From IMG/VR virus record IMGVR_UViG_3300044724_001247, positions 1-61,935 of that record: a stretch of 61,935 bases of DNA. One strand, written 5' to 3'. A program made the translations under genes and the position numbers. The notes beneath the pieces were generated by a model, which ran no database searches, had not been told where the DNA came from, and worked only from the letters and a program-made list of their open reading frames with translations. Below are positions 8,288 through 61,849 of this stretch, in pieces. How positions within the stretch are numbered: the stretch's first letter is position 1; each line of letters starts with the position of its first letter. The DNA comes from a virus. Its lineage: Duplodnaviria > Caudoviricetes.

Positions 8288-8322
8288 GATAAATAAGTTA
8301 AAAACTATTGTCTTTATTTATA
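8288..8322. promoter_or_regulatory. Divergent late promoters: GATAAATA (+, 8288-8295) for gp4 and TATAAATA (-, 8315-8322) for gp48
   Basis: Consensus and near-consensus octamers in the 54-nt divergent spacer. Confidence 0.7.
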
Positions 8323-18135: not shown

Positions 18136-18143
18136 TATAAATA
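18136..18143 (+). promoter_or_regulatory. Late promoter TATAAATA
   Basis: Exact consensus 5 nt upstream of the ATG at 18149. Confidence 0.85.
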
Positions 18144-20064: not shown

Positions 20065-20745
20065 ATGATTAAGTTCAAGAAATTCATGGTCGAGGGTGTA
20101 GATGACCCCGCAATCTTCAAGGCAGTATTCCTTGCGGGTGGGCCTGGATCTGGCAAATCTTTCATTGTCGGTAAGACGGGTCTGCCTGCTCTTGGATTAA
20201 AGGTGGTCAACTCTGACGATGCGTATGAAGCCGCTATGAAGAAAGCGGGAATGGAAATGTCTCCTGAGAATATCTTCTCTGTTCAAGGTCAAGACATCCG
20301 TGGTAAAGCAAAGGCTCTCACTGGTAAAAGACAAGCACGATACCTCATGGGTAGGCTCGGTGTTGTTATTGATGGTACTGGTAAAGACTTTGCTAAGGTC
20401 AAGAAGCAAACCGAGTCGATGAAGGCACTAGGTTACGATGTCGCAATGATCTTCGTAAACACCGACCTTGATACTGCCATCGCACGAGATAAGGCACGTG
20501 ACCGTACTATCGGTGAGAAAGAAGTAACCAAGTACTGGAAAGAAGTTCAACGAAATATTGGTGCATTCCAGACCATGTTTGGAAAGAAGAACATGTTGAT
20601 CGTAGATAACTCAAATGGTAAAGACTACCAGAAAGAGACACTACGCGCATATCGTGACATCAAGAAGTTCTTAGACAAAGAACCAGAAAATGCCAAAGCG
20701 AAGGCATGGATCAAGAAGGAAAGGGAAAAGAAGAGGAGAGACTAG
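20065..20745 (+). CDS. P-loop kinase (zeta-toxin/AAA_33-like) with putative capsid-targeting N-terminus
   Basis: Walker A GGPGSGKS; VNSDD; VIDGTG; N-terminal MIKFKKFMVE. Confidence 0.8.
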   Translation: MIKFKKFMVEGVDDPAIFKAVFLAGGPGSGKSFIVGKTGLPALGLKVVNSDDAYEAAMKKAGMEMSPENIFSVQGQDIRGKAKALTGKRQARYLMGRLGVVIDGTGKDFAKVKKQTESMKALGYDVAMIFVNTDLDTAIARDKARDRTIGEKEVTKYWKEVQRNIGAFQTMFGKKNMLIVDNSNGKDYQKETLRAYRDIKKFLDKEPENAKAKAWIKKEREKKRRD

Positions 20746-44437: not shown

Positions 44438-45659
44438 TTAAATGTCCCCTTAACTGCTCGTAATTGATCTTTGTGTCCTGAAAGAACGGAGTCATATCAA
44501 AACCATCCGGTATATCTATCGGAATCTCTCTTTGCCTATTTAGTATGTATTGTCCATCTACAAATGAGATATCGTCATCTATGTAACGAGGTTTGTCCCA
44601 CCACTCGTGATCCACCCATAGATAGGATCTCCTAGTTTCAGCACTATTTTTTATACTGACCTTATAAAAGTTATCCGGTAACACACCAAGACTATTGGGA
44701 AGTATTTTACTATTAGCATTCACATAGTTTATGAACAAAGGAATGGCGGTGTCAATACTGCCGTAGTGTGACTGAAATGCCACGTTATATTTCTTTGCTA
44801 GTTCAACAAACTCCTCGTCCATCAAGAACCCTGACATATTGATGTTCAGTGTTTTTCGGAAAGGCCCAGAGAATGAGTCGAGGAAGTCGTATAGTGTACT
44901 CTTGTTTGGTATCATAATATGACTAGCACCCAACTCATATATCCCGTGTAACCCTCTTAGATAGGATATTGATTCGTCATTGGAATTGTCGTGACCAATT
45001 GAAAAGGTGTGGTGGTTGTGATTTGAAGATTGACGAACACTCGTTACCATAAGACTGGGTAGTAGTGAGGTGAGCATGGCAGAGGCGTGATGTAGATTCC
45101 TAGAGTGAATCACTCGTGAGTGTCGAGTGAATCCAAATACCTTTATATTTCTTTTCGCAATACCAACAACCTCTTTGTGAGAGAATGTGACTGGACTAGA
45201 TGGGCCTGTTGTTCCTGATGTGGAACTGACTAGAAAAGGATCGTCTTCGTATACGGGTGCTGCTTGAAAGAACTTGTGTTGCGTAGGAGACTCAGCATCG
45301 ATACCGACTCCACCGTATCGCCTCATCATCTCGTCGTGTAGACCGTTATAGATTTTGGTGGTGTCTTCGGCAGAACTGTAAATATAGTAATCGGATGGGC
45401 CGTGGAGTGCAAGTTTAGTAAAAGGCAGAGACTCCTTGGTAGCGGGACTGTCTAGAATGAATACTCTCAGTCCCATCTCAGCACATGCGAGTATTGCACC
45501 AACATGTTTGACGTTGACTCCCATGATCGATATCGTAACAAGGTCACCCTTCTTCGCACCCGCATCAAATAGTCGCCACTTCATCTGGTTTATGTGAGTG
45601 TCGATATCCTCACCGGCAAATATTTCACATATGATATTACGATCTAATATGTTTGGCAT
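44415..45659 (-). CDS. AMP-binding (ANL adenylation) enzyme-like protein
   Basis: SSTSGTTG P-loop, LHH, SHYGSID. Confidence 0.72.
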   Translation of the reverse strand: MPNILDRNIICEIFAGEDIDTHINQMKWRLFDAGAKKGDLVTISIMGVNVKHVGAILACAEMGLRVFILDSPATKESLPFTKLALHGPSDYYIYSSAEDTTKIYNGLHDEMMRRYGGVGIDAESPTQHKFFQAAPVYEDDPFLVSSTSGTTGPSSPVTFSHKEVVGIAKRNIKVFGFTRHSRVIHSRNLHHASAMLTSLLPSLMVTSVRQSSNHNHHTFSIGHDNSNDESISYLRGLHGIYELGASHIMIPNKSTLYDFLDSFSGPFRKTLNINMSGFLMDEEFVELAKKYNVAFQSHYGSIDTAIPLFINYVNANSKILPNSLGVLPDNFYKVSIKNSAETRRSYLWVDHEWWDKPRYIDDDISFVDGQYILNRQREIPIDIPDGFDMTPFFQDTKINYEQLRGHLSVISKRV

Positions 45660-46041
45660 GAATCTTACATCCTATGAACTCATTGTAGTATTCATCACTC
45701 AACAGAACATCGTATTGGAACTGTAGTTTTGCTTCGTAATAGGAACACTCACCTTTGGTATGACACAACCGGAGAACCTCTCTATGGAACTCCTGACCTC
45801 CTTCTACGAGGGTTTTTACCTGTTCTGAGGAACCATAGTAGTCACGCCAGTCCGACTGGACTCGTGTTCGTTTGCGTCTTTTTCTTGTTTTCGTAACAGG
45901 GAGTATCTTGGGTTTCCAGAAGAATTTCTTACCAATATACTTTTTATTAGTGCTTAACTCAGTCAAGCAGTAGACAAAGCCTTGGTATTGCTCCAAGACT
46001 TCGTCTTCTGGTTCAAACTCCTTACCTTCATATATCCACAT
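45637..46041 (-). CDS. GIY-YIG endonuclease (T4 EndoII-like family)
   Basis: GFVY..KYIGKK..SDWRDYYGSS..YYNE; likely start MWIYEG. Confidence 0.8.
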   Translation of the reverse strand: MWIYEGKEFEPEDEVLEQYQGFVYCLTELSTNKKYIGKKFFWKPKILPVTKTRKRRKRTRVQSDWRDYYGSSEQVKTLVEGGQEFHREVLRLCHTKGECSYYEAKLQFQYDVLLSDEYYNEFIGCKIHAKHIRS

Positions 46042-46054
46042 AAAGGTATATATG

Positions 46055-46189
46055 CTAGTCTTGTATGGAGACTCCACACATAGGACAGTATTGGGGTTCC
46101 TCCTCACTGTCCTTGACTATCACTTCAACTTCACTTTCACATAAATTACATTCTAGTATGAAGATGGGGAGTTCGTCATCATCTATCAT
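46055..46189 (-). CDS. Small zinc-ribbon protein (44 aa, not in the ORF track)
   Basis: CNLC...CPMCG; ATGA overlap with nrdB. Confidence 0.72.
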   Translation of the reverse strand: MIDDDELPIFILECNLCESEVEVIVKDSEEEPQYCPMCGVSIQD

Positions 46190-53514: not shown

Positions 53515-54192
53515 CTAACTACTATTTATAAGACTGCGATTCTTTAATCGATACTCACAGATCTTATACTGCCAATGTTCTGGGATTCTCATCCCCAAAT
53601 ACTCACCCACCCGAGCGAGTTCTTTTACTGTCCCCGTCGAGTCAAACAACAACTCATACGGATCGACCATTAGAAAGTCATGGTCATCTGGGATAGTCTC
53701 CATGTACACATGAAAGTAATGTGCCATGGACTCCCAAGGTCTATTCCAAAACTGGTCTACATCTAGTATCCCATCGTCAAGCATGGCCTGACCCTGAGCA
53801 TGATCTGATGGTTTCACCAGTTTCAGTTTCGCTAGACGTTCTGTAAATTCAAGACTCTTTCTGTTTCGAGGCATGAATATGATCGTCTTTGTCTCGTCCC
53901 AATCACTCCAGAGATAGTCAGACCAGAACTCTTGGTTGAGGACAAACCCGTAACCATGATCCAATCTAACATTCCAAAGTTTTTCGTTCCACTCAGGCTT
54001 CTGAACTTTCCGAGGATCGTTCCTAGTCACCTCTATCTCGTGTGACTGGTAATCCTCTCGTTTCAGAAACCAGCGTTCTGTATTCCTTTCCTTATGTAAA
54101 GGTTTCTCAGCGACCTCATCTAATTGCTGTAACAAACCACCGAAAAACTCACCACCAGCACCACCACGGTACAATACATTTATAATCTTCAC
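53515..54192 (-). CDS. Sulfotransferase-like P-loop protein
   Basis: LYRGGAGGEFF, DH, PYELL. Confidence 0.5.
   Translation of the reverse strand: MKIINVLYRGGAGGEFFGGLLQQLDEVAEKPLHKERNTERWFLKREDYQSHEIEVTRNDPRKVQKPEWNEKLWNVRLDHGYGFVLNQEFWSDYLWSDWDETKTIIFMPRNRKSLEFTERLAKLKLVKPSDHAQGQAMLDDGILDVDQFWNRPWESMAHYFHVYMETIPDDHDFLMVDPYELLFDSTGTVKELARVGEYLGMRIPEHWQYKICEYRLKNRSLINSS
53523..53530 (-). promoter_or_regulatory. Late promoter TATAAATA
   Basis: Exact consensus upstream of 53486. Confidence 0.75.
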
Positions 54193-54458
54193 TGACCGTC
54201 ATATATCCTTAAAACTAGGTCACCTTCGCCTTTTAATATTCTATGGTATTCCATTGCTGGTATACTATAACTATGTTGTTCCATCAATTGCATAGGCTCT
54301 TGATTGTCAAACTGTAGTTTCCAGTTGTAACCCTCTAGCACAATGATTCGTCTCTTTTCTTTATCCCTGTGCCAGACTAACTCTTCTTCGTTGACATCTT
54401 TACTGAAGGTTCTGATACTTCCATGAATCACCTTCAGTTCATTGTAGGGGGTTACCAA
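54189..54458 (-). CDS. Cupin-like small protein
   Basis: ELVWHRD..WKLQFDN..YHRILKG; start uncertain. Confidence 0.7.
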   Translation of the reverse strand: MVTPYNELKVIHGSIRTFSKDVNEEELVWHRDKEKRRIIVLEGYNWKLQFDNQEPMQLMEQHSYSIPAMEYHRILKGEGDLVLRIYDGQ

Positions 54459-54967
54459 AAGAAACTCCCACCACCGGACAGTCCTAATTGCTTGGCATAA
54501 CGAGGCAAACGACACGCCCAGTATGCTGCTGTAGTCTTGTCATTCTGTTGGTCACACTTGTGACGAGCAGCAAATGACTTACGTGCCTTCGGATCATTCA
54601 ACTTGACCTTGAGTCCAGTCGTATCACCCCAAGACACCTTCTTGATATTACCTGTGGACGGATCTTTGACGTACACATAGTACTTCTTCGGGCCACCCGC
54701 CTTCGGTTTGTTCAGTTCTGGTTGTTTCTTCTCTGCTTCAAAGATGCAGTCCAGCGCAACATTCTCGCCATTGAACTCAGCAAACTCACCAAGGTTAGAC
54801 TCCATGATGTCTACCTCGTGGGGTTGTACTTGCAGTTCACCATTGTGATACTGTTCGCGTAGGTCACGCCAGTACTCAAAGTACTTCTCTGATCCCACAC
54901 GGAAGATATTGTTCTCTACCAGATCTGACTCTGATCCGCAGTCACAATGTTCGTTAAATGTTCTCAT
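54452..54967 (-). CDS. Conserved hypothetical protein (putative internal head protein)
   Basis: MRTFNE; KKYYVYVK..ARKSFAARHKC..YWAC. Confidence 0.78.
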   Translation of the reverse strand: MRTFNEHCDCGSESDLVENNIFRVGSEKYFEYWRDLREQYHNGELQVQPHEVDIMESNLGEFAEFNGENVALDCIFEAEKKQPELNKPKAGGPKKYYVYVKDPSTGNIKKVSWGDTTGLKVKLNDPKARKSFAARHKCDQQNDKTTAAYWACRLPRYAKQLGLSGGGSFFW

Positions 54968-55690: not shown

Positions 55691-56881
55691 CTATCGTCCT
55701 AATCTTTTCAGTAGGGCTTTGACAGATCGAAGATCCTTGGAGACCACCTTCTGAAACTTCTCTTTGTCAGCGGGTCGTTTCAGGGTGTTGAACATATTGG
55801 TCAGTTTCTTGGCATCCGCTTGAGACAGTTTACCTTTCTTACCATCCTTGAATTCAATATCAGATCCCTTTTCTAGATCCGCGGCTTTTCGTATTTGCAT
55901 AACGACATTCTTATCAGCCGCCTTACGGTCATCATCAGTCGCGTCATTATCTACATCGGCAGGGTCAACCTTTCGTTCTTTCATTGTTGGTTTTTCGTGG
56001 GTGTAACCCATCTTGTCCATACGAACATGGTCAGCATACTTATTTGCCTTGTAACCTTTGCCCGTCTTCGGGTCATACATCATGTGTGGTTTGAAGTCAT
56101 CCTCATCAGCACATTCGTTCTTAGGTTTCTCACCTCTCTCTTTCTTAGAGATTGCGATTGCCGCCTGTTGTGCTGGAGAGACTGCTTCTTTCACCAATAG
56201 TTTAGCATCAACAGACTTATCATTATTACCACCAAAGTTTACTTTGACATCACCATCACCGTAGTCCTTCACAACCTTGCCAGACTTCCTTATTGCGTCT
56301 CCATAACTTCTAGCAGTCTTTGGGTCGATGCCTTTCTTGAACTTGACCTTATCCCCAACCTTGAGACCTTCATCGACAGATTCAACTTGAGTGTCGATGT
56401 AGTCTGCCATACCGTCAAGTTTATCAACCGCAACAGCAACTTTATTTGTCCACCACGTTGGTAGAGAGTCTTGGTCACCTAATTTACCAAGTTCTGTATT
56501 CATCTTTTGAAGTGCAGACATAGCAGTCTTGATTTTATTCTTCATAGACTCTACATCATTATGGCCGTCTTCTTTCATTTCTTGTGCGGGAGAGACGGCC
56601 TCTTGCATCAAACGACCATTCTTGAACATACCATGTTTCTGTAGAATCTGCAACACACCATCACGAGGATCAGTGTCCATACCACCGATAAACTTCTTCA
56701 TCGCCGTGAATGCTTTGTTCTGTACCATAGTAGATGAGTTCTTACCGATCTCACGCACATATGCGGCAACCTTCTGGAAAGACTCCTTATCGATACCACC
56801 AGACTTCTTGGCGTAATCTTCCAGAGCTTTGGCTGTCTTCATGAAGTCAATCGCTTCAGTGATTTGTGATAAATTTTTCAT
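55691..56881 (-). CDS. Modular putative internal head protein
   Basis: MKNLSQITEA; EAVSPAQ twice; LPTWWTNKVAVA and KVGDKVK modules. Confidence 0.7.
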   Translation of the reverse strand: MKNLSQITEAIDFMKTAKALEDYAKKSGGIDKESFQKVAAYVREIGKNSSTMVQNKAFTAMKKFIGGMDTDPRDGVLQILQKHGMFKNGRLMQEAVSPAQEMKEDGHNDVESMKNKIKTAMSALQKMNTELGKLGDQDSLPTWWTNKVAVAVDKLDGMADYIDTQVESVDEGLKVGDKVKFKKGIDPKTARSYGDAIRKSGKVVKDYGDGDVKVNFGGNNDKSVDAKLLVKEAVSPAQQAAIAISKKERGEKPKNECADEDDFKPHMMYDPKTGKGYKANKYADHVRMDKMGYTHEKPTMKERKVDPADVDNDATDDDRKAADKNVVMQIRKAADLEKGSDIEFKDGKKGKLSQADAKKLTNMFNTLKRPADKEKFQKVVSKDLRSVKALLKRLGR

Positions 56882-56889
56882 CCTAAGTC

Positions 56890-57186
56890 CTAAGTGATGT
56901 ATGCGTTTAGTTCGTATCGTTTATTATCAAGGTTTGTGACCTGTACGGCAAGCATCTTGCGTTTCTCACCATCTAACTTGAGAGTAAAACTATTGGTCTT
57001 ACCATTGGACGGTTTCTTAGGCCCCATTGCCACTTTACTATCAATATCGTCCGTGTCTACCTCAAACCCTTTCTTCTTTGCGAATGCGTATGCAGCACTC
57101 ATTGCACCGGAATAGGTCTTGTGATACAGAGGGTAATCATTCTTTCCCTCTTTGAGTTCTGTGACTATGTCCCAGTATGATTTCAT
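56890..57186 (-). CDS. Hypothetical protein (putative internal head protein)
   Basis: MKSYWDIVTELKE; YELNAYI. Confidence 0.72.
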   Translation of the reverse strand: MKSYWDIVTELKEGKNDYPLYHKTYSGAMSAAYAFAKKKGFEVDTDDIDSKVAMGPKKPSNGKTNSFTLKLDGEKRKMLAVQVTNLDNKRYELNAYIT

Positions 57187-57401
57187 GCGAGATCCTTATC
57201 GTGGTTCAGACCACCTTTTTTCTTTTTGACTATGAAGGCATTGACACGGGCATAACCCCACTGTTGAGGGGTAGTGCCTGGCCTATGACCAGTCTTCCAT
57301 GCAGCAACACCACGGTTATAAACTTTCTTCAGAGTACCATAAGAGATACCAGACTTATCTGCTTTCTTTTTCAGGGCATCATCTGCTTCGTATAACTTCA
57401 T
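57183..57401 (-). CDS. Small basic protein (DUF5824-like)
   Basis: LKKVYNRGVAAWKTGHRPG..QQWGYARVN. Confidence 0.78.
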   Translation of the reverse strand: MKLYEADDALKKKADKSGISYGTLKKVYNRGVAAWKTGHRPGTTPQQWGYARVNAFIVKKKKGGLNHDKDLA

Positions 57402-59029
57402 TTGGTTTCTCTATTTTTTGTTTTTGCTCGGGCCAATCGCGCACGATCTAGAATGCGATCATGCTTCGCTTTGTCTTGTTCTTTCTCGCGAGCGATTGCA
57501 TCTCGTGCTTGTTGCACAGCATCTTCTTTGGTCTCGACCTTCGGCCCACGCCAGTCAAGATGCTTGGGTAACGCACCCTTGTCCAAGAGTTTGAAGAATA
57601 CGTTCTGAGTCTTCTTCGGAGGAAGACCGTACATTCGGGCAGTCTTGGTCAATAGTGCTTGTCCCTGATTAGGATTCTTGCGTCTAGCATCTAGGTACTT
57701 GCGGATCACCTTTTTGTACATAGAACCATTGACTAGTTTGTCTAGTATATCACCAAAGACGGGATTGTCAAAGTTGATATACGTCATTCTTTCTTCTAGA
57801 GGAGTATCTTTCTTGTACTTCTTCAGTAACTTATCCGTACCCTCTTCGCCAGCATTCTCTCCATACATGTCTTTGAATGCTTTGGTGTACTTGGACGGTT
57901 TGGTCTTAGCACCCTTATCGCCAGGAGCAGGCTTGTATGCAGAGTCATCATCGTCTGCCTTCTTGCCATGTTTCTTGAAATGTGCGTCTCTCTTGTCCTT
58001 GGTTCCTTTCTTCAGACCCGCATAGTACTTCTTGGGTTGCGTTCCTTCCTTGTCCTTGATATCGGGATCTTGAACCGCAGCTTTCTCTGCAACTCGTTTA
58101 GCAGTAGCAGTCGCGATGGCCATCTTCTTGTCCATCGGCATGTCGGGGTTCTCGCGTTCCATTGCCTTCGCAATCTCTTCGCGTTTCTTGATCTCAGCGG
58201 GGGTCAACTTCTTCTCGACCAGTTCTACCGCATCCAACCACTTACGCATCTTACGATCACCGGACTCTACGATAACGTAGTTTGCGCCCAGATGAGATAC
58301 AATACCGACCTCTTCGCTTTCTTTGATAACAACAGTATCACCCAACTCAAAGAGTTCACCCTTGACAAACTGTTCTCTTGTTTCGGAAACAGTAGGCATT
58401 TCAATGTGACGCTTGAACGAGGTCTCTTCCTTGAGACCCATACCCTTACGCACATCGTTGAACAACCTACGAGTGTCCTTGTCGGACATACCTTTGGGAA
58501 CACCCTGAGTAAATGATTGGTAATCGTTCTCTTTGGCATTGGCACGTTGCTTGGATGCAGACATACCCTCAACACCTTCCGCATCAGGATCTCTGCGACC
58601 AGCCGAGACGATGTTGATCGACTCAAAATTATAGAACCCGTGGCGTGCTTTCTTACCGTTGTATTTGTTCAGTAGGACTTCAAACTCACGTAGACGGTCT
58701 TCCCCGACCACCATAGTGATTCGTTTGTATCCTTGATCGTATAACTTGGCAGCGATATCAAATACATTCTTGACACCCTTATCAACCATGATGTTGCGAC
58801 CATACTTGGGGAACATCTTGCGTAGGTGTTTGACCTTGTCGGAGTATGAGAGAGGATCTTTAGGCCCAACAGACTGAGACACATAGACCTTCCAGTCAGC
58901 GCCACCAGCCTTCTTTGCGATAGTCTCTAATACTTTCCCATGACCGATAGTAGGCGGATTCATTCTACCGAAAGTAAAATAAACCTCTTTAGCCTCTTCG
59001 ACCAGATAGGATTTGAAATTCTTAATCAC
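57398..59029 (-). CDS. Cytidylyltransferase-like (HxGH) nucleotidyltransferase with charged C-terminal modules
   Basis: TFGRMNPPTIGH, VVGEDR, SAGRRDPD, MSASK; GTG start at 59029 after GAGGTG. Confidence 0.85.
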   Translation of the reverse strand: MIKNFKSYLVEEAKEVYFTFGRMNPPTIGHGKVLETIAKKAGGADWKVYVSQSVGPKDPLSYSDKVKHLRKMFPKYGRNIMVDKGVKNVFDIAAKLYDQGYKRITMVVGEDRLREFEVLLNKYNGKKARHGFYNFESINIVSAGRRDPDAEGVEGMSASKQRANAKENDYQSFTQGVPKGMSDKDTRRLFNDVRKGMGLKEETSFKRHIEMPTVSETREQFVKGELFELGDTVVIKESEEVGIVSHLGANYVIVESGDRKMRKWLDAVELVEKKLTPAEIKKREEIAKAMERENPDMPMDKKMAIATATAKRVAEKAAVQDPDIKDKEGTQPKKYYAGLKKGTKDKRDAHFKKHGKKADDDDSAYKPAPGDKGAKTKPSKYTKAFKDMYGENAGEEGTDKLLKKYKKDTPLEERMTYINFDNPVFGDILDKLVNGSMYKKVIRKYLDARRKNPNQGQALLTKTARMYGLPPKKTQNVFFKLLDKGALPKHLDWRGPKVETKEDAVQQARDAIAREKEQDKAKHDRILDRARLARAKTKNRETK

Positions 59030-59504
59030 TCTTTTGATCACCTCGTTTCTTTTCAAGTTCACCCTTACGAACTTGAGGAAGCAACTTCCGTGCAAGTTTG
59101 TCGATCTTGGGTTTCATCTTATCTAGACGCTTCTCAATGCCCTGTCTACGACTTAAAGATAACTCGTCCTTGGGTACGTCTTTGGTGATCTTATTGAGGA
59201 ACTGATTACGTGCTTGCTTCTGTGCACGTTTCTTTAGAGTGTCTATATTGGCAACTTTACGGGCCGCACGCTTGCGTCCCATTGCAATCTTTGCTTTGTT
59301 CTTTTTAAGAGAACGAGACAACTTCATACGTTGTTGTACGTTGAGTGCTTCTTTGGGATTCGGGGGATTCGTTGATGCATACTCAGCATCACTTCCCGCA
59401 CCGATATCTCGCTTGCGCTTCTTTGCGTTATACGCTTGTTGTGGATCGCCCGTCTGGGTGTAATCCACATTCAGGAATGTCTTTAGGCTCATTGGTTTAG
59501 CCAT
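59022..59504 (-). CDS. Very basic conserved hypothetical protein
   Basis: EALNVQQR..KRAQKQARN..LLPQVRK. Confidence 0.75.
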   Translation of the reverse strand: MAKPMSLKTFLNVDYTQTGDPQQAYNAKKRKRDIGAGSDAEYASTNPPNPKEALNVQQRMKLSRSLKKNKAKIAMGRKRAARKVANIDTLKKRAQKQARNQFLNKITKDVPKDELSLSRRQGIEKRLDKMKPKIDKLARKLLPQVRKGELEKKRGDQKSD

Positions 59505-59506
59505 GT

Positions 59507-60727
59507 TTACCTCTTCGGTTTATCCCATCCCTTCAGTATATCAGGACTGAAGTTATTGTACGAAAATTCTAGACGGTCAACCAACTTGACCGCATCACCA
59601 CCTAATTTGTCAATAGCAACAAATCCTTCTGCACCCGTTCTAACCTTATAACCTTTCTTAGTCTGAACAAAGGTGTCATATGAAGATATGCTATTAAGTT
59701 TATTTATAAGTTTTAACTTCGCAAGAACAATACTTTTTTGTAAATCAAACATTTGAACCAGATTAGTTTTGTTCTTCGGAGAGAAGAACTTCATGAGTGC
59801 ATCCAGTTTGTCCTGCTGGGTCTTCTTACCCGCTGCGGTACTTCTCTTATCCATCTCTTTCTGAAACTTATCGTTCAACCACTTGAGCAATCCAGTCACG
59901 TGTTTTCGACTGTCAGGGATAACCGTCTGAGCCCGTACAAATGTATTATTATATTGTTCGATCAGTTTGGCAAGTTCATCGTTTCTTTCCAACTCACGTA
60001 GTGTCGTACCGGAGATCTTATTGAAGATCTTACCCGCATCGGACAGATGCTTCGTCACTTCGGCAGTCTCTTTCTTATTCATGGTCGCACCAGACACATC
60101 ACGCAACATGGCGTCTTGTGACCAGACGTTTGCGGAGTTCTTGAACTTGGATACGTCCACACCGTAGGATGCTTTCAATGACTCAAACGAATTACCCGTG
60201 TAGGTGGTGTGCCATACGATACCGATCTTGGCCTTACGCAGTGCATCCGCCTGATCGTAGGGTACAGCATAGATAATCGTGTTAGGGTGGAAGGTCACAT
60301 ACTTCTGACCCTCAATAGTCTCGGTGCTGAGATCTGGTTTTGAGAACAAGAAGTCACCCTGAATTATACCCTTTATACCAAGTTCTGGCAAGTGTTTTAA
60401 TGCGAGTTTCATCTTATCAGCAAGGTCACCAGACATGTCACCATCAATCTCTGCCGCAGTCTTATAGACCTTGGGATTCTTGGCGAACACACCCTTCTTC
60501 GCAACAAAGAACTCACCATCGGTAGGATCTTGACCGCAGAAGATTGCGGGAGCACCATCCCACTTGGTAGATAGTTTAGAACTCGTCTGACCCGCCAACA
60601 TATCACGCAACTCACGTAACGCATTGATGGCCTGTCGCGTACCACTCACACCACCATAGAGAACCTTGTCCTCAATATGAGTCATGTGAGTGTTCTTTTG
60701 TTCTGTTATGAAATCGGTGAAGTTCAT
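59507..60727 (-). CDS. DUF6267-like protein with RNA/DNA-ligase-type nucleotidyltransferase motifs
   Basis: KWDG (I), QGDF (III), EGFV (IV), VKLV (V); N-terminal MNFTDFITE. Confidence 0.72.
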   Translation of the reverse strand: MNFTDFITEQKNTHMTHIEDKVLYGGVSGTRQAINALRELRDMLAGQTSSKLSTKWDGAPAIFCGQDPTDGEFFVAKKGVFAKNPKVYKTAAEIDGDMSGDLADKMKLALKHLPELGIKGIIQGDFLFSKPDLSTETIEGQKYVTFHPNTIIYAVPYDQADALRKAKIGIVWHTTYTGNSFESLKASYGVDVSKFKNSANVWSQDAMLRDVSGATMNKKETAEVTKHLSDAGKIFNKISGTTLRELERNDELAKLIEQYNNTFVRAQTVIPDSRKHVTGLLKWLNDKFQKEMDKRSTAAGKKTQQDKLDALMKFFSPKNKTNLVQMFDLQKSIVLAKLKLINKLNSISSYDTFVQTKKGYKVRTGAEGFVAIDKLGGDAVKLVDRLEFSYNNFSPDILKGWDKPKR

Positions 60728-61800
60728 TAGAATTTTATCTTATTTCGGAATGACGGGTCTGGTTCTGCCCCAAGAAATGACTTTAGTTTGTCAACACCTT
60801 TTTTATAGAATGCTGTAACCTTACTCCAAGTCTTGGACATCCACCCACGAATAGTTTTTAGCAGTTTTAATTCCTGTAACTCTATACTCTCACTGAGTTC
60901 CTCAGAGTCTTGCATAGAGTCTACAATAAGAGATATAACTGACCAGTAGTTGTACTCACCAGTCTTAACCTTTTTAATTTTACGAGAGGATGTCTTGAAT
61001 CTTGCCTGTAGTTTCATTGCATTTGCAATCTTCAAACAGTAGGCATCATCATCTACCGAGTGTATTTTAACTGTACCACCATCGGCCGTGGCAACTAACA
61101 TAAACTCAGCGGCAGCGTTTGAGGTTCTTCCAAACTTCTCGTATCCAGACATCGCCTCTCGTGCAAACTCAACCTTGAATGATTTAGATTCGTTGAACAG
61201 TTTACCCAACTCTTCCATACAGTCTTTATGTGCTTTCTCTGCCTTGTTTACTACAGGGTCAGTACCAGACTTAATCAAGGGTCTTAATTGAGATGGTGCG
61301 AGAGTGTTTTTTACAAATCCTTCTAGGACATCAACAGTTGCTTTGTACTGTGAGGACTTCTTGAGTTCGGGGTTGGAATTCTTGGTTGCGGCCTCGAAGG
61401 TTGCAGTCGATTCTGCTTTACCACCGGACATCAACTGTGCAATACCAATCTTAACAGAGAATCGCATATCACCAATCAAAACATCTGTCTTGGGTGTAAT
61501 GTCAGACGCACCATGAGATTTCCAGAAATTAGTCAGTGTCGCCTTTGCACGACCATACTGTTCTGCTTCTTTGTTCTTCAATGCGGGGTATTGTTTTAAT
61601 ACCGACTCAGCGATCTTGCGACCCGCCTCCAATGCTTTAGGATTATCCCTAATAATATTGAATACTTTATCAGAGATACCGTACTTTAGAGGATTATCAG
61701 TAATGGGTCTATCAGTAAGTTCGTAGAATCCCATCACGATAGATGCTTCATAATCCTCTGCTTTTAATCCCTCAGATAGAAAGGTATTAAACTTCTGCAT
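60727..61800 (-). CDS. Hypothetical protein, possible PD-(D/E)xK nuclease-like fold
   Basis: TPKTDVL..FSVK motif; N-terminal MQKFNTFLSE. Confidence 0.6.
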   Translation of the reverse strand: MQKFNTFLSEGLKAEDYEASIVMGFYELTDRPITDNPLKYGISDKVFNIIRDNPKALEAGRKIAESVLKQYPALKNKEAEQYGRAKATLTNFWKSHGASDITPKTDVLIGDMRFSVKIGIAQLMSGGKAESTATFEAATKNSNPELKKSSQYKATVDVLEGFVKNTLAPSQLRPLIKSGTDPVVNKAEKAHKDCMEELGKLFNESKSFKVEFAREAMSGYEKFGRTSNAAAEFMLVATADGGTVKIHSVDDDAYCLKIANAMKLQARFKTSSRKIKKVKTGEYNYWSVISLIVDSMQDSEELSESIELQELKLLKTIRGWMSKTWSKVTAFYKKGVDKLKSFLGAEPDPSFRNKIKF

Positions 61801-61841: not shown

Positions 61842-61849
61842 TATTTATA
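61842..61849 (-). promoter_or_regulatory. Late promoter TATAAATA
   Basis: Exact consensus upstream of 61800. Confidence 0.8.

Follow-up and report, generated by a model that had tools for sequence, protein, structure and literature searches.

Why would a phage place genes for a nuclease, a ligase-like enzyme and a nucleotidyltransferase behind one late promoter and begin each of them with a similar short N-terminal signal? The question is raised by a run of minus-strand genes, A to F, in a 61,935-nucleotide stretch of viral DNA (positions 1 to 61,935 of IMG/VR record IMGVR_UViG_3300044724_001247; the window is this whole stretch). The answer that we favour, giving it slightly better than even chances, is that these genes encode cargo for the phage head, directed there by a capsid targeting sequence of the T4 type, with a ligase-transferase pair as the core and swappable extras around it. 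The phage would thus probably inject ready-made enzymes alongside its DNA. At this locus and in its relatives the analysis shows the tag, modelled folds, conservation of catalytic residues, the order of the genes and a series of gene fusions. The features discussed below are the following (lengths in amino acids, aa).

61842..61849, minus strand: late-promoter consensus TATAAATA, 42 nucleotides (nt) 5' of the gene A ATG
60727..61800, minus strand: gene A, 357 aa; leader MQKFNTFLSE (next residue G), model with a HinP1I/MspI-like fold, C-terminal helical tail (about 299-357)
59507..60727, minus strand: gene B, 406 aa, DUF6267; leader MNFTDFITE (next residue Q), RNA-ligase-like nucleotidyltransferase domain with a helical insert
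59701..59708, minus strand: second TATAAATA, within the 3' part of B, about 200 nt 5' of C
59022..59504, minus strand: gene C, 160 aa, very basic; family N-terminus LSFKDFxxVDY
57398..59029, minus strand: gene D, 543 aa from GTG 59029; leader MIKNFKSYLVE (next residue E), (H/T)xGH nucleotidyltransferase domain 1-210
57183..57401, minus strand: gene E, 72 aa; its start overlaps the D stop and it matches the second half of DUF5824
56890..57186, minus strand: gene F, 98 aa, basic, of unknown family; leader MKSYWDIVTE (next residue L)
20065..20745, plus strand: P-loop kinase, 226 aa; Pfam AAA_33 and Zeta_toxin, leader MIKFKKFMVE (next residue G)

A probable capsid targeting sequence on late genes

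What does a head-loading signal look like? In cargo of the T4 type it is an N-terminal propeptide of 10-19 residues, hydrophobic or aromatic at positions 4 and 7. According to an excerpt of a review of phage T4 (PMC9026906), the first 10 residues of the internal protein IPIII are enough for loading into the head; residues 4 and 7 mainly govern targeting, residues 8 and 10 govern processing, and cleavage by gp21 follows L/I-x-E. In the T4 record IPIII begins with MKTYQEFIAE/A and IPI with MKTFKEF.... Where IPIII carries Y4 and F7, gene A and the kinase carry F4 and F7 and gene F carries Y4 and I7, with B and D offset by one residue. Motifs of the gp21 type follow in all five leaders, as L-S-E in A, I-T-E in B, L-V-E in D, V-T-E in F and M-V-E in the kinase; the M and V at the first motif position of the kinase and F are looser than the published L/I. 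A first-pass annotation had described a capsid-targeting-like leader on the three enzymes of the run and on the kinase at 20065, and at the key positions the leaders indeed match the T4 tag residue for residue.

The leader is found more often than chance would allow. When N-termini of open reading frames (ORFs) were scanned with the pattern ^M.{1,4}[FYW]..[FYWILVM][LIVM].E, five of the 96 ORFs in the window matched: A, B, D, F and the kinase. In 20,571 internal residues the core of this pattern was counted 12 times, which translates to about 0.2 expected N-terminal matches, or somewhat above that value since alternative starts were scanned as well. In the AlphaFold models of A and B the tagged N-terminal residues have a predicted local distance difference test score (pLDDT) below 50.

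The leader is also retained in relatives. For D it is present in 60 of 60 pelagiphage-like loci and, in the form MKKFSAFLSEA, in 69 of 69 S-RIM-like cyanophage loci; it is found in none of 52 S-PM2-like loci, where the D domain forms the C-terminal half of a protein that fuses ligase and transferase. Among 73 pelagiphage-like loci 56 carry the B leader, and the others have near-variants of it. In the A family 24 of 61 members follow the strict pattern, IPI-like variants are seen among the others, and E10 is at least 90% conserved. The start of the C family, LSFKDFxxVDY, is a pattern related, not identical, to the leader.

The genes concerned bear a sign of late expression. A late operon of four minus-strand genes had been proposed at this place; the genes are confirmed, and late expression fits. 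A, B, C and D lie there as described, tightly packed with overlapping or abutting ends, and a T4-type consensus precedes the ATG of A (61849-61842 on the minus strand). The window holds 11 copies of TATAAATA where 1.5 are expected, a number reached in none of 100 shuffles. Other copies include those at 456-463, 8315-8322, 18136-18143 and 53523-53530, and the plus-strand gene run that ends in the tagged kinase is preceded by one copy too. Beyond D the same run goes on through E and F and probably extends to about 53515.

Are such proteins found in phage particles? For one of them there is published evidence. The annotated cytidylyltransferase of cyanophage S-RIM4 matches D with 38% identity over 293 residues (E 3e-62), and excerpts of two studies place this family in purified virions: the cyanophage core 'citidylyltransferase' T4-GC190 was detected in S-SM1 particles (Sullivan et al. 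2010, PMC3037559), and the virion proteome of S-CREM2 lists the cytidylyltransferase ORF154 together with hypothetical proteins encoded just 3' of it (PMC10665884). The S-CREM2 authors add, in the same excerpt, that kinases and cytidyltransferases are often detected in cyanophage virions, and they speculatively call the family a homolog of nicotinamide mononucleotide (NMN) adenylyltransferase, NMNAT (PMC10665884). Presence in virions, which the packaging idea calls for, is thus reported for cyanophage orthologs of D in these excerpts, which do not mention N-terminal processing. The literature that we searched contained no paper tying the virion presence of the cytidylyltransferase to a capsid targeting sequence or to a DUF6267 partner. 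The initial suggestion of an undescribed system is only partly right, as the virion association and the NMNAT-like speculation are already in print.

How would such cargo work? In the scenario that we favour, A, B, D, F and the kinase would be made late, each with a tag whose positions 4 and 7 are hydrophobic and whose positions 8-10 read [LIVM]-x-E. The tag would steer each protein into the prohead core, a prohead protease of the gp21 type would trim it after the glutamate, and the trimmed protein would be ejected together with the DNA into the next host. B and D, with the basic C between them, would form the constant core. B would seal breaks in polynucleotides, a 5' kinase, where present, would ready the ends for sealing, and nuclease A as well as the kinase would be swappable extras in a hypervariable cargo locus. 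We infer the packaging of A, B and C, the cleavage of the tag, all of the enzyme activities and the substrate.

The enzymes of the gene run

Gene B belongs to Pfam DUF6267 (E 2e-102), a large family: all 8000 scored candidates pass E 0.001, so it has at least 8000 relatives, and it is present in 464 cultured-phage records, nearly all of them from cyanophages. The first reading of its sequence had picked out the ligase-superfamily motifs KWDG, QGD, EGFV and VKL. In an alignment of 74 sequences with identities down to 27%, the key residues of these motifs turn out to be invariant in every member (K55, D57 and G58; D125; E367 and G368; K381), and the same is true of F74, V75, K78, F81, P148, N149, Y153, H173, T174, N261, K337, V383, R385, F388, S389 and N392. 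By sequence conservation alone, D125, P148-N149-Y153, E367-G368 and K381 are candidates for motifs III, IIIa, IV and V.

The model of B (pLDDT 89.8, predicted template modelling score 0.85) points in the same direction. A comparison by VIA-align with 48,161 representative chains, which is independent of Foldseek, placed RNA ligases on top, namely NgrRnl (Z 7.9, 183 residues), Trl1 (7.6, 201), T4 Rnl2 (7.2, 180) and T4 Rnl1 (7.0, 167), followed by DNA ligases at 6.3 to 5.5. In a second fold search 47 of the 50 rows listed were RNA or DNA ligases, the best being NgrRnl (Z 8.1, 184 residues, root-mean-square deviation 3.9), REL1 (7.7, 195), T4 Rnl1 (7.5) and T4 Rnl2 (7.2). Foldseek against the PDB gave weak rows, many of them ligases or capping enzymes and none at E <= 0.001, and the wide VIA-align search gives the same ligase families as the second fold search (Z 7.9-6.7). 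The model also contains a helical insert of about 130 aa (218-345) ahead of the EG and VKL motifs and, read from its secondary structure, no OB domain. Because the matches fall consistently into one family, cover 166-209 aligned residues and are accompanied by invariant KxDG, EG and K motifs, we regard the modelled ligase fold as reasonably safe, in line with the ligase-like label that B had received. B found no match among PDB sequences by phmmer and profile search and no named family in NCBIfam, and the ESM Atlas returned only DUF6267 clusters and no structure.

Taken together, B is predicted to be a catalytically intact adenylyltransferase of the RNA-ligase type. Its likeliest chemistry is the sealing of strand breaks, since its set of catalytic residues is complete, nick-sealing RNA ligases are its nearest neighbours by fold, and relatives are fused to kinases. 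Which strands would it seal? RNA nicks or damaged tRNA, such as host RNA cut by defence nucleases, are a tentative choice, some other substrate is as plausible, and nicks in the phage's own DNA come slightly behind these two. A counter-defence role of the kind first proposed, through tRNA repair or NAD supply, is only a candidate.

Gene D most likely starts at GTG 59029 (543 aa, MIKNFKSYLVEE) and not at TTG 59095 of the ORF 57398-59095, because the N-terminus M-I-x-x-F-x-x-[YF]-L-V-E-E is conserved in relatives, 60 of 60 of which agree with this start. The transferase domain (1-210) is followed by a small beta domain and a lysine-rich tail that weakly matches the first half of DUF5824; E, which matches the other half, is fused to D in some relatives. 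D exceeds the cut-off of Pfam CTP_transf_like (22.7 bits against 21) and matches the 'cytidyltransferase' families phrog_3041 and phrog_395 at 1e-71 and 9e-64. The sequence TIGH supplies its (H/T)xGH motif, whose G29 and H30 are the same in all 47 sequences compared; further invariant residues include G21, R22, P25, T27, S157, K160 and R162. Thus, of the earlier proposal of an HxGH enzyme similar to NMNAT or a cytidylyltransferase, the nucleotidyltransferase motif is borne out and the NMNAT placement is not: by sequence, the best solved structure is archaeal MJ0541 (PDB 1f9a) at a non-significant E of 0.49, and NCBIfam returns only a generic domain at 16.2 bits, below its cut-off of 27.7.

The smaller partners can be described briefly. 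C is as basic as had been noted, with an isoelectric point of 10.59 and 27.5% lysine plus arginine. The kinase matches AAA_33 with 36 bits (cut-off 27), Zeta_toxin with 32.6 bits (cut-off 22.3) and phrog_505 'polynucleotide kinase' at E 6e-7.

Gene A is the most isolated by sequence. It matches no family in Pfam, PHROG or NCBIfam; Pfam run at E up to 5 on all 61 family members returned nothing, and phmmer and profile searches of PDB sequences gave no named family. A search of 1.84 billion representatives yielded 459 relatives at E <= 0.001, and among 50,697 cultured-phage records A occurs in seven, from Melnitz (4), Pelagibacter phage HTVC008M (2) and Microcystis phage Mel-JY01 (1), all annotated as hypothetical. 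Melnitz also carries B and D, and HTVC008M also carries D. The model (pLDDT 89.7) resembles restriction endonucleases: HinP1I (Z 10.5, 185 of 241 residues), MspI (9.6, 200 of 262) and HhaI (6.5, 163) lead the list, and the next row stands at 5.2. Foldseek paired A with MspI at E 2.7e-3 and probability 0.98, with no PDB row at E <= 0.001. A viral structure library yielded eight matches at E <= 0.001, all unnamed or uncharacterized, six of which come from cyanophages or uncultured phages.

A had been read as PD-(D/E)xK-like from the letters PKTD..SVK. This reading finds support: the motif is present as TPKTD...SVK, its residues D106, S115 and K117 (D106-x8-S115-x-K117) are invariant in 61 of 61 family members, and the modelled fold is that of a restriction endonuclease. 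In the model D106 immediately precedes a strand of a hairpin, and K117 comes towards the end of the strand that follows. An invariant E18 is located within the first helix, and either E18 or E215 may complete the active site in place of the missing acid. A most likely acts on DNA by itself; no methyltransferase partner turned up among the operon genes in the Pfam and PHROG scans, which were not aimed at finding one.

The window strongly avoids palindromes of 6 bp: it contains 547, where its base composition predicts 992, and it lacks 20 of the 64 altogether, among them GGATCC, GTCGAC and TTCGAA; non-palindromic controls of the same composition occur 717 times with 730 expected. One near-complete relative (G002) has a ratio of 0.91 with none absent, that is, no avoidance. 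We considered this avoidance as self-protection from A and rejected it: relatives without A beside B avoid palindromes equally or more (ratios of 0.47 in L003 and 0.42 in L007), and carriers of A avoid them less (0.78 in L008, 0.72 in L059).

Further genes of the window deserve mention. It codes for baseplate proteins, gp4, gp2, gp32, gp33, ribonucleotide reductase and PhoH, and is a 61.9-kb fragment of a T4-like marine myovirus with a CheckV completeness of 38%. The closest cultured relatives, Phage C48C1 and Methylophilales phage Melnitz, are both Kyanoviridae; C48C1 shares about 70% nucleotide identity across 42% of a 4.9-kb query. Downstream of F, a minus-strand gene at 55691-56881 encodes a lysine-rich protein of 396 aa that contains an EAVSPAQ stretch twice and has no family match in Pfam or PHROG; possibly it is cargo of a modular or repeated build. 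A minus-strand ORF of 156 aa (45637-46107), flanked by the reductase genes and by unknown genes, matches a PHROG named 'NAD synthetase' at 2e-38. It also matches homing-endonuclease PHROGs, which makes that name doubtful.

Gene order, fusions and competing explanations

Do these genes belong together? Downstream DNA of at least 1.8 kb is available for 62 of 80 IMG/VR loci with B, and all 62 show the order B-(C)-D, with C and then D in 57 and D without a detectable C in 5. The slot 5' of B is variable. Of the 57 ORFs found there, 20 bear the strict leader and come from several unknown families, about 20 others form one leaderless family, and A itself occupies the slot in no more than 10 loci of the two clades. 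In four loci (L003:5688-7001, L042:5709-7001, L018:4979-6277 and L006:380-1693) a different tagged protein of about 430 aa, reading ...FSTFLSE/SSLTFGEITR... and matching no Pfam family, occupies the slot of A.

Fusions add to this picture. The 120 longer DUF6267 proteins that were listed comprise 88 ligase domains with unknown extensions, 20 transferase-ligase, 4 ligase-transferase-E, 2 ligase-transferase, 3 kinase-ligase and 3 ligase-C-E-I proteins; source pipelines name two of the fused forms 'phosphopantetheine adenylyltransferase' and 'nicotinic acid mononucleotide adenylyltransferase'. Kinase and DUF6267 are joined in L059 and in P0274 to P0276, where P0274 represents 344 member sequences; the L059 fusion is 60% and 70% identical to the two window genes, the kinase and B. 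The nuclease, too, is found in fusions, with DUF6267 in P0126 and with the transferase in P0231, P0232, P0245 and P0247, the last three of which carry an extra HNH domain and P0232 and P0247 also a SET domain.

Some junctions and architectures are of interest in their own right. The kinase-DUF6267 junction at L059:5951-8200 reads ...YKSLFLPEE/KNTHMTHIED, a leader-like remnant resembling a protease site just ahead of the ligase domain. P0287 to P0289 (1314-1377 aa) unite DUF6267, C, the DUF5824 piece E and a homolog of window gene I (54452-54967); apparently the entire operon can be expressed as a single polypeptide. The N-terminal 250 residues of P0126 were considered as a nucleotidyltransferase of the polymerase-beta type on account of a GS...DxD pattern; they have no Pfam match at E 2, and we make no claim for them.

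A variable, partly tagged slot with different families in it, SET and HNH domains among the fusion partners and a sporadic occurrence of A and the kinase would all fit a head filled with unrelated effectors, co-delivered and acting on separate host targets with no shared repair pathway, in keeping with the polyvalent-protein concept outlined in an excerpt of PMC5512222. We consider this possible, though rather unlikely. It leaves unaccounted for the invariant order in 62 of 62 loci and the recurrence of ligase-transferase fusions in 26 of the 120 proteins listed; that these occur in both orders argues that B and D at least work together. The fusion of kinase and ligase, moreover, is the classic heal-and-seal arrangement known from Trl1 and Pnkp.

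Several observations weigh against the head-cargo reading as a whole. The proposal that all these genes form one system did not survive the comparison of loci, as only B-(C)-D is constant and A and the kinase are each found in just one of five near-complete relatives; the fusions, for their part, may reflect only co-delivery and not a shared pathway, and we claim no such pathway for A. The gp21-family protease (PF03420) was not found in the window record, which is 38% complete; it is present in two of two near-complete relatives (E 1e-40 and 3e-39). The S-CREM2 authors caution, in the part of their paper used here, that abundant proteins may co-purify with virions (PMC10665884). As to the ligase, the notes of the tool rate Z values of about 8 as middling, none of the 74 B sequences matches a ligase family of Pfam even at E 5, and hhalign of the DUF6267 profile against T4 gp30, Rnl1 and Rnl2 gives probabilities below 1%. 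As to the nuclease, the middle catalytic acid is replaced by serine (S115). HinP1I and MspI are likewise not known to have this acid. The window holds GCGC 64 times and CCGG 71 times, so a 4-bp cutter like the structural neighbours of A would cut its own DNA unless this is modified or the enzyme is kept inactive. Finally, the DUF6267 proteins of cyanophages are leaderless, in 0 of 47 S-PM2-like and 0 of 78 S-RIM-like loci (0 of 125), and are encoded just after DNA polymerase, UvsX, primase-helicase and MazG. Since these copies lack the leader and adjoin replication genes, the family functions without packaging in many phages.

These cyanophage copies also speak for a second alternative, in which B is the missing DNA ligase of the phage family and works inside the cell in replication or recombination, the transferase and kinase are ordinary helpers and the shared N-terminus is no packaging signal. 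T4 has a DNA ligase, gp30. A canonical ATP-dependent (PF01068) or NAD-dependent (PF01653) ligase is found in none of five near-complete relatives (G001-G005), all of which carry DUF6267, and control genomes did match; DNA ligases are, moreover, among the fold matches of B at Z of about 6. We nevertheless judge this alternative unlikely: in the clade of the window B follows a late promoter and is mostly tagged, no OB domain is seen in its model, the Z values of RNA ligases exceed those of DNA ligases by 1 to 2 units, and its partner D belongs to a family known from virions. The two ideas are not mutually exclusive.

Less likely again is a 'cut and mend' kit within the head. Here an entry-stage nuclease would attack resident DNA, and a ligase of a new class, accompanied by a nucleotidyltransferase and a kinase of its own, would replace the missing DNA ligase, repairing the incoming genome after environmental damage or cleaved host RNAs before phage expression. 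The weakest candidate is a supply of nucleotide cofactor, with D as an NMN adenylyltransferase that rebuilds NAD+ against NAD-depleting defences and possibly feeds an NAD-using B: it can draw on the NMNAT label in the excerpt of PMC10665884, the faint match to MJ0541 and the two pipeline names given above, and is made improbable by the non-significance of that match, a generic NCBIfam domain below cut-off, an operon in which neither Nampt nor another NAD-salvage partner was seen, the absence of NAD-dependent ligases from the fold matches of B and the fact that pre-packaging is not obviously needed against late-firing defences.

If the head-cargo reading is correct, a T4 head-loading tag explains why 'cytidylyltransferase' and kinases have repeatedly been found in purified cyanophage particles. 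Injected cargo could then be predicted from the sequence pattern in the abundant T4-like phages that infect marine SAR11, OM43 and cyanobacteria, a nuclease with a restriction-enzyme fold would join the list of likely head cargo, and DUF6267 gains a testable activity. No paper that draws these connections came up in the literature searched.

Likeness to known systems

The nearest model is the set of T4 internal proteins. With IPI, IPII, IPIII and Alt the tagged proteins share a ten-residue N-terminal tag with matching key positions; basic proteins, late expression and a variable content of the locus are common to both, and a gp21-family protease is present in relatives. T4 cargo consists of small inhibitors and an ADP-ribosyltransferase, and Alt illustrates that an enzyme can serve as tagged head cargo. 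What differs is the kind of cargo, which here would be made up of enzymes acting on nucleic acids (ligase-like, HIGH transferase, restriction-endonuclease fold, kinase) whose packaging and tag cleavage are predicted. In D there is also a direct connection to the cyanophage core 'cytidylyltransferase' (T4-GC190; S-CREM2 ORF154), of which it is a homolog and which has been found in virions.

With the ATP-dependent RNA ligases B shares the invariant KxDG lysine motif and candidate EG and K motifs. Its nucleotidyltransferase domain is modelled with the fold of the nick-sealing enzymes Naegleria NgrRnl/Rnl5, T. brucei REL1 and T4 Rnl2 (Z 8.1 to 6.8, 166-209 residues aligned). Unlike them, it carries a helical insert of about 130 aa and has no separate C-terminal or OB domain. 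Kinase-ligase fusions among its relatives recall T4 Pnkp plus Rnl1 and fungal Trl1, with the difference that the partner of B is a HIGH transferase and not a phosphatase or cyclic phosphodiesterase.

Gene A, in turn, has the two-sheet monomeric fold in common with HinP1I, MspI and HhaI over most of its chain, at a sequence identity of only about 12%. In an excerpt of PMC7026639 the HhaI motif is given as SD-X11-EAK, with D34 and K48; the aspartate and lysine of A are placed likewise, at the start and end of adjacent hairpin strands. Set apart from all three enzymes by its D-x8-S-x-K motif, its head-loading tag and its C-terminal helical tail, A is encoded by a lytic phage, and its relatives are fused to DUF6267 or to a transferase plus SET and HNH domains.

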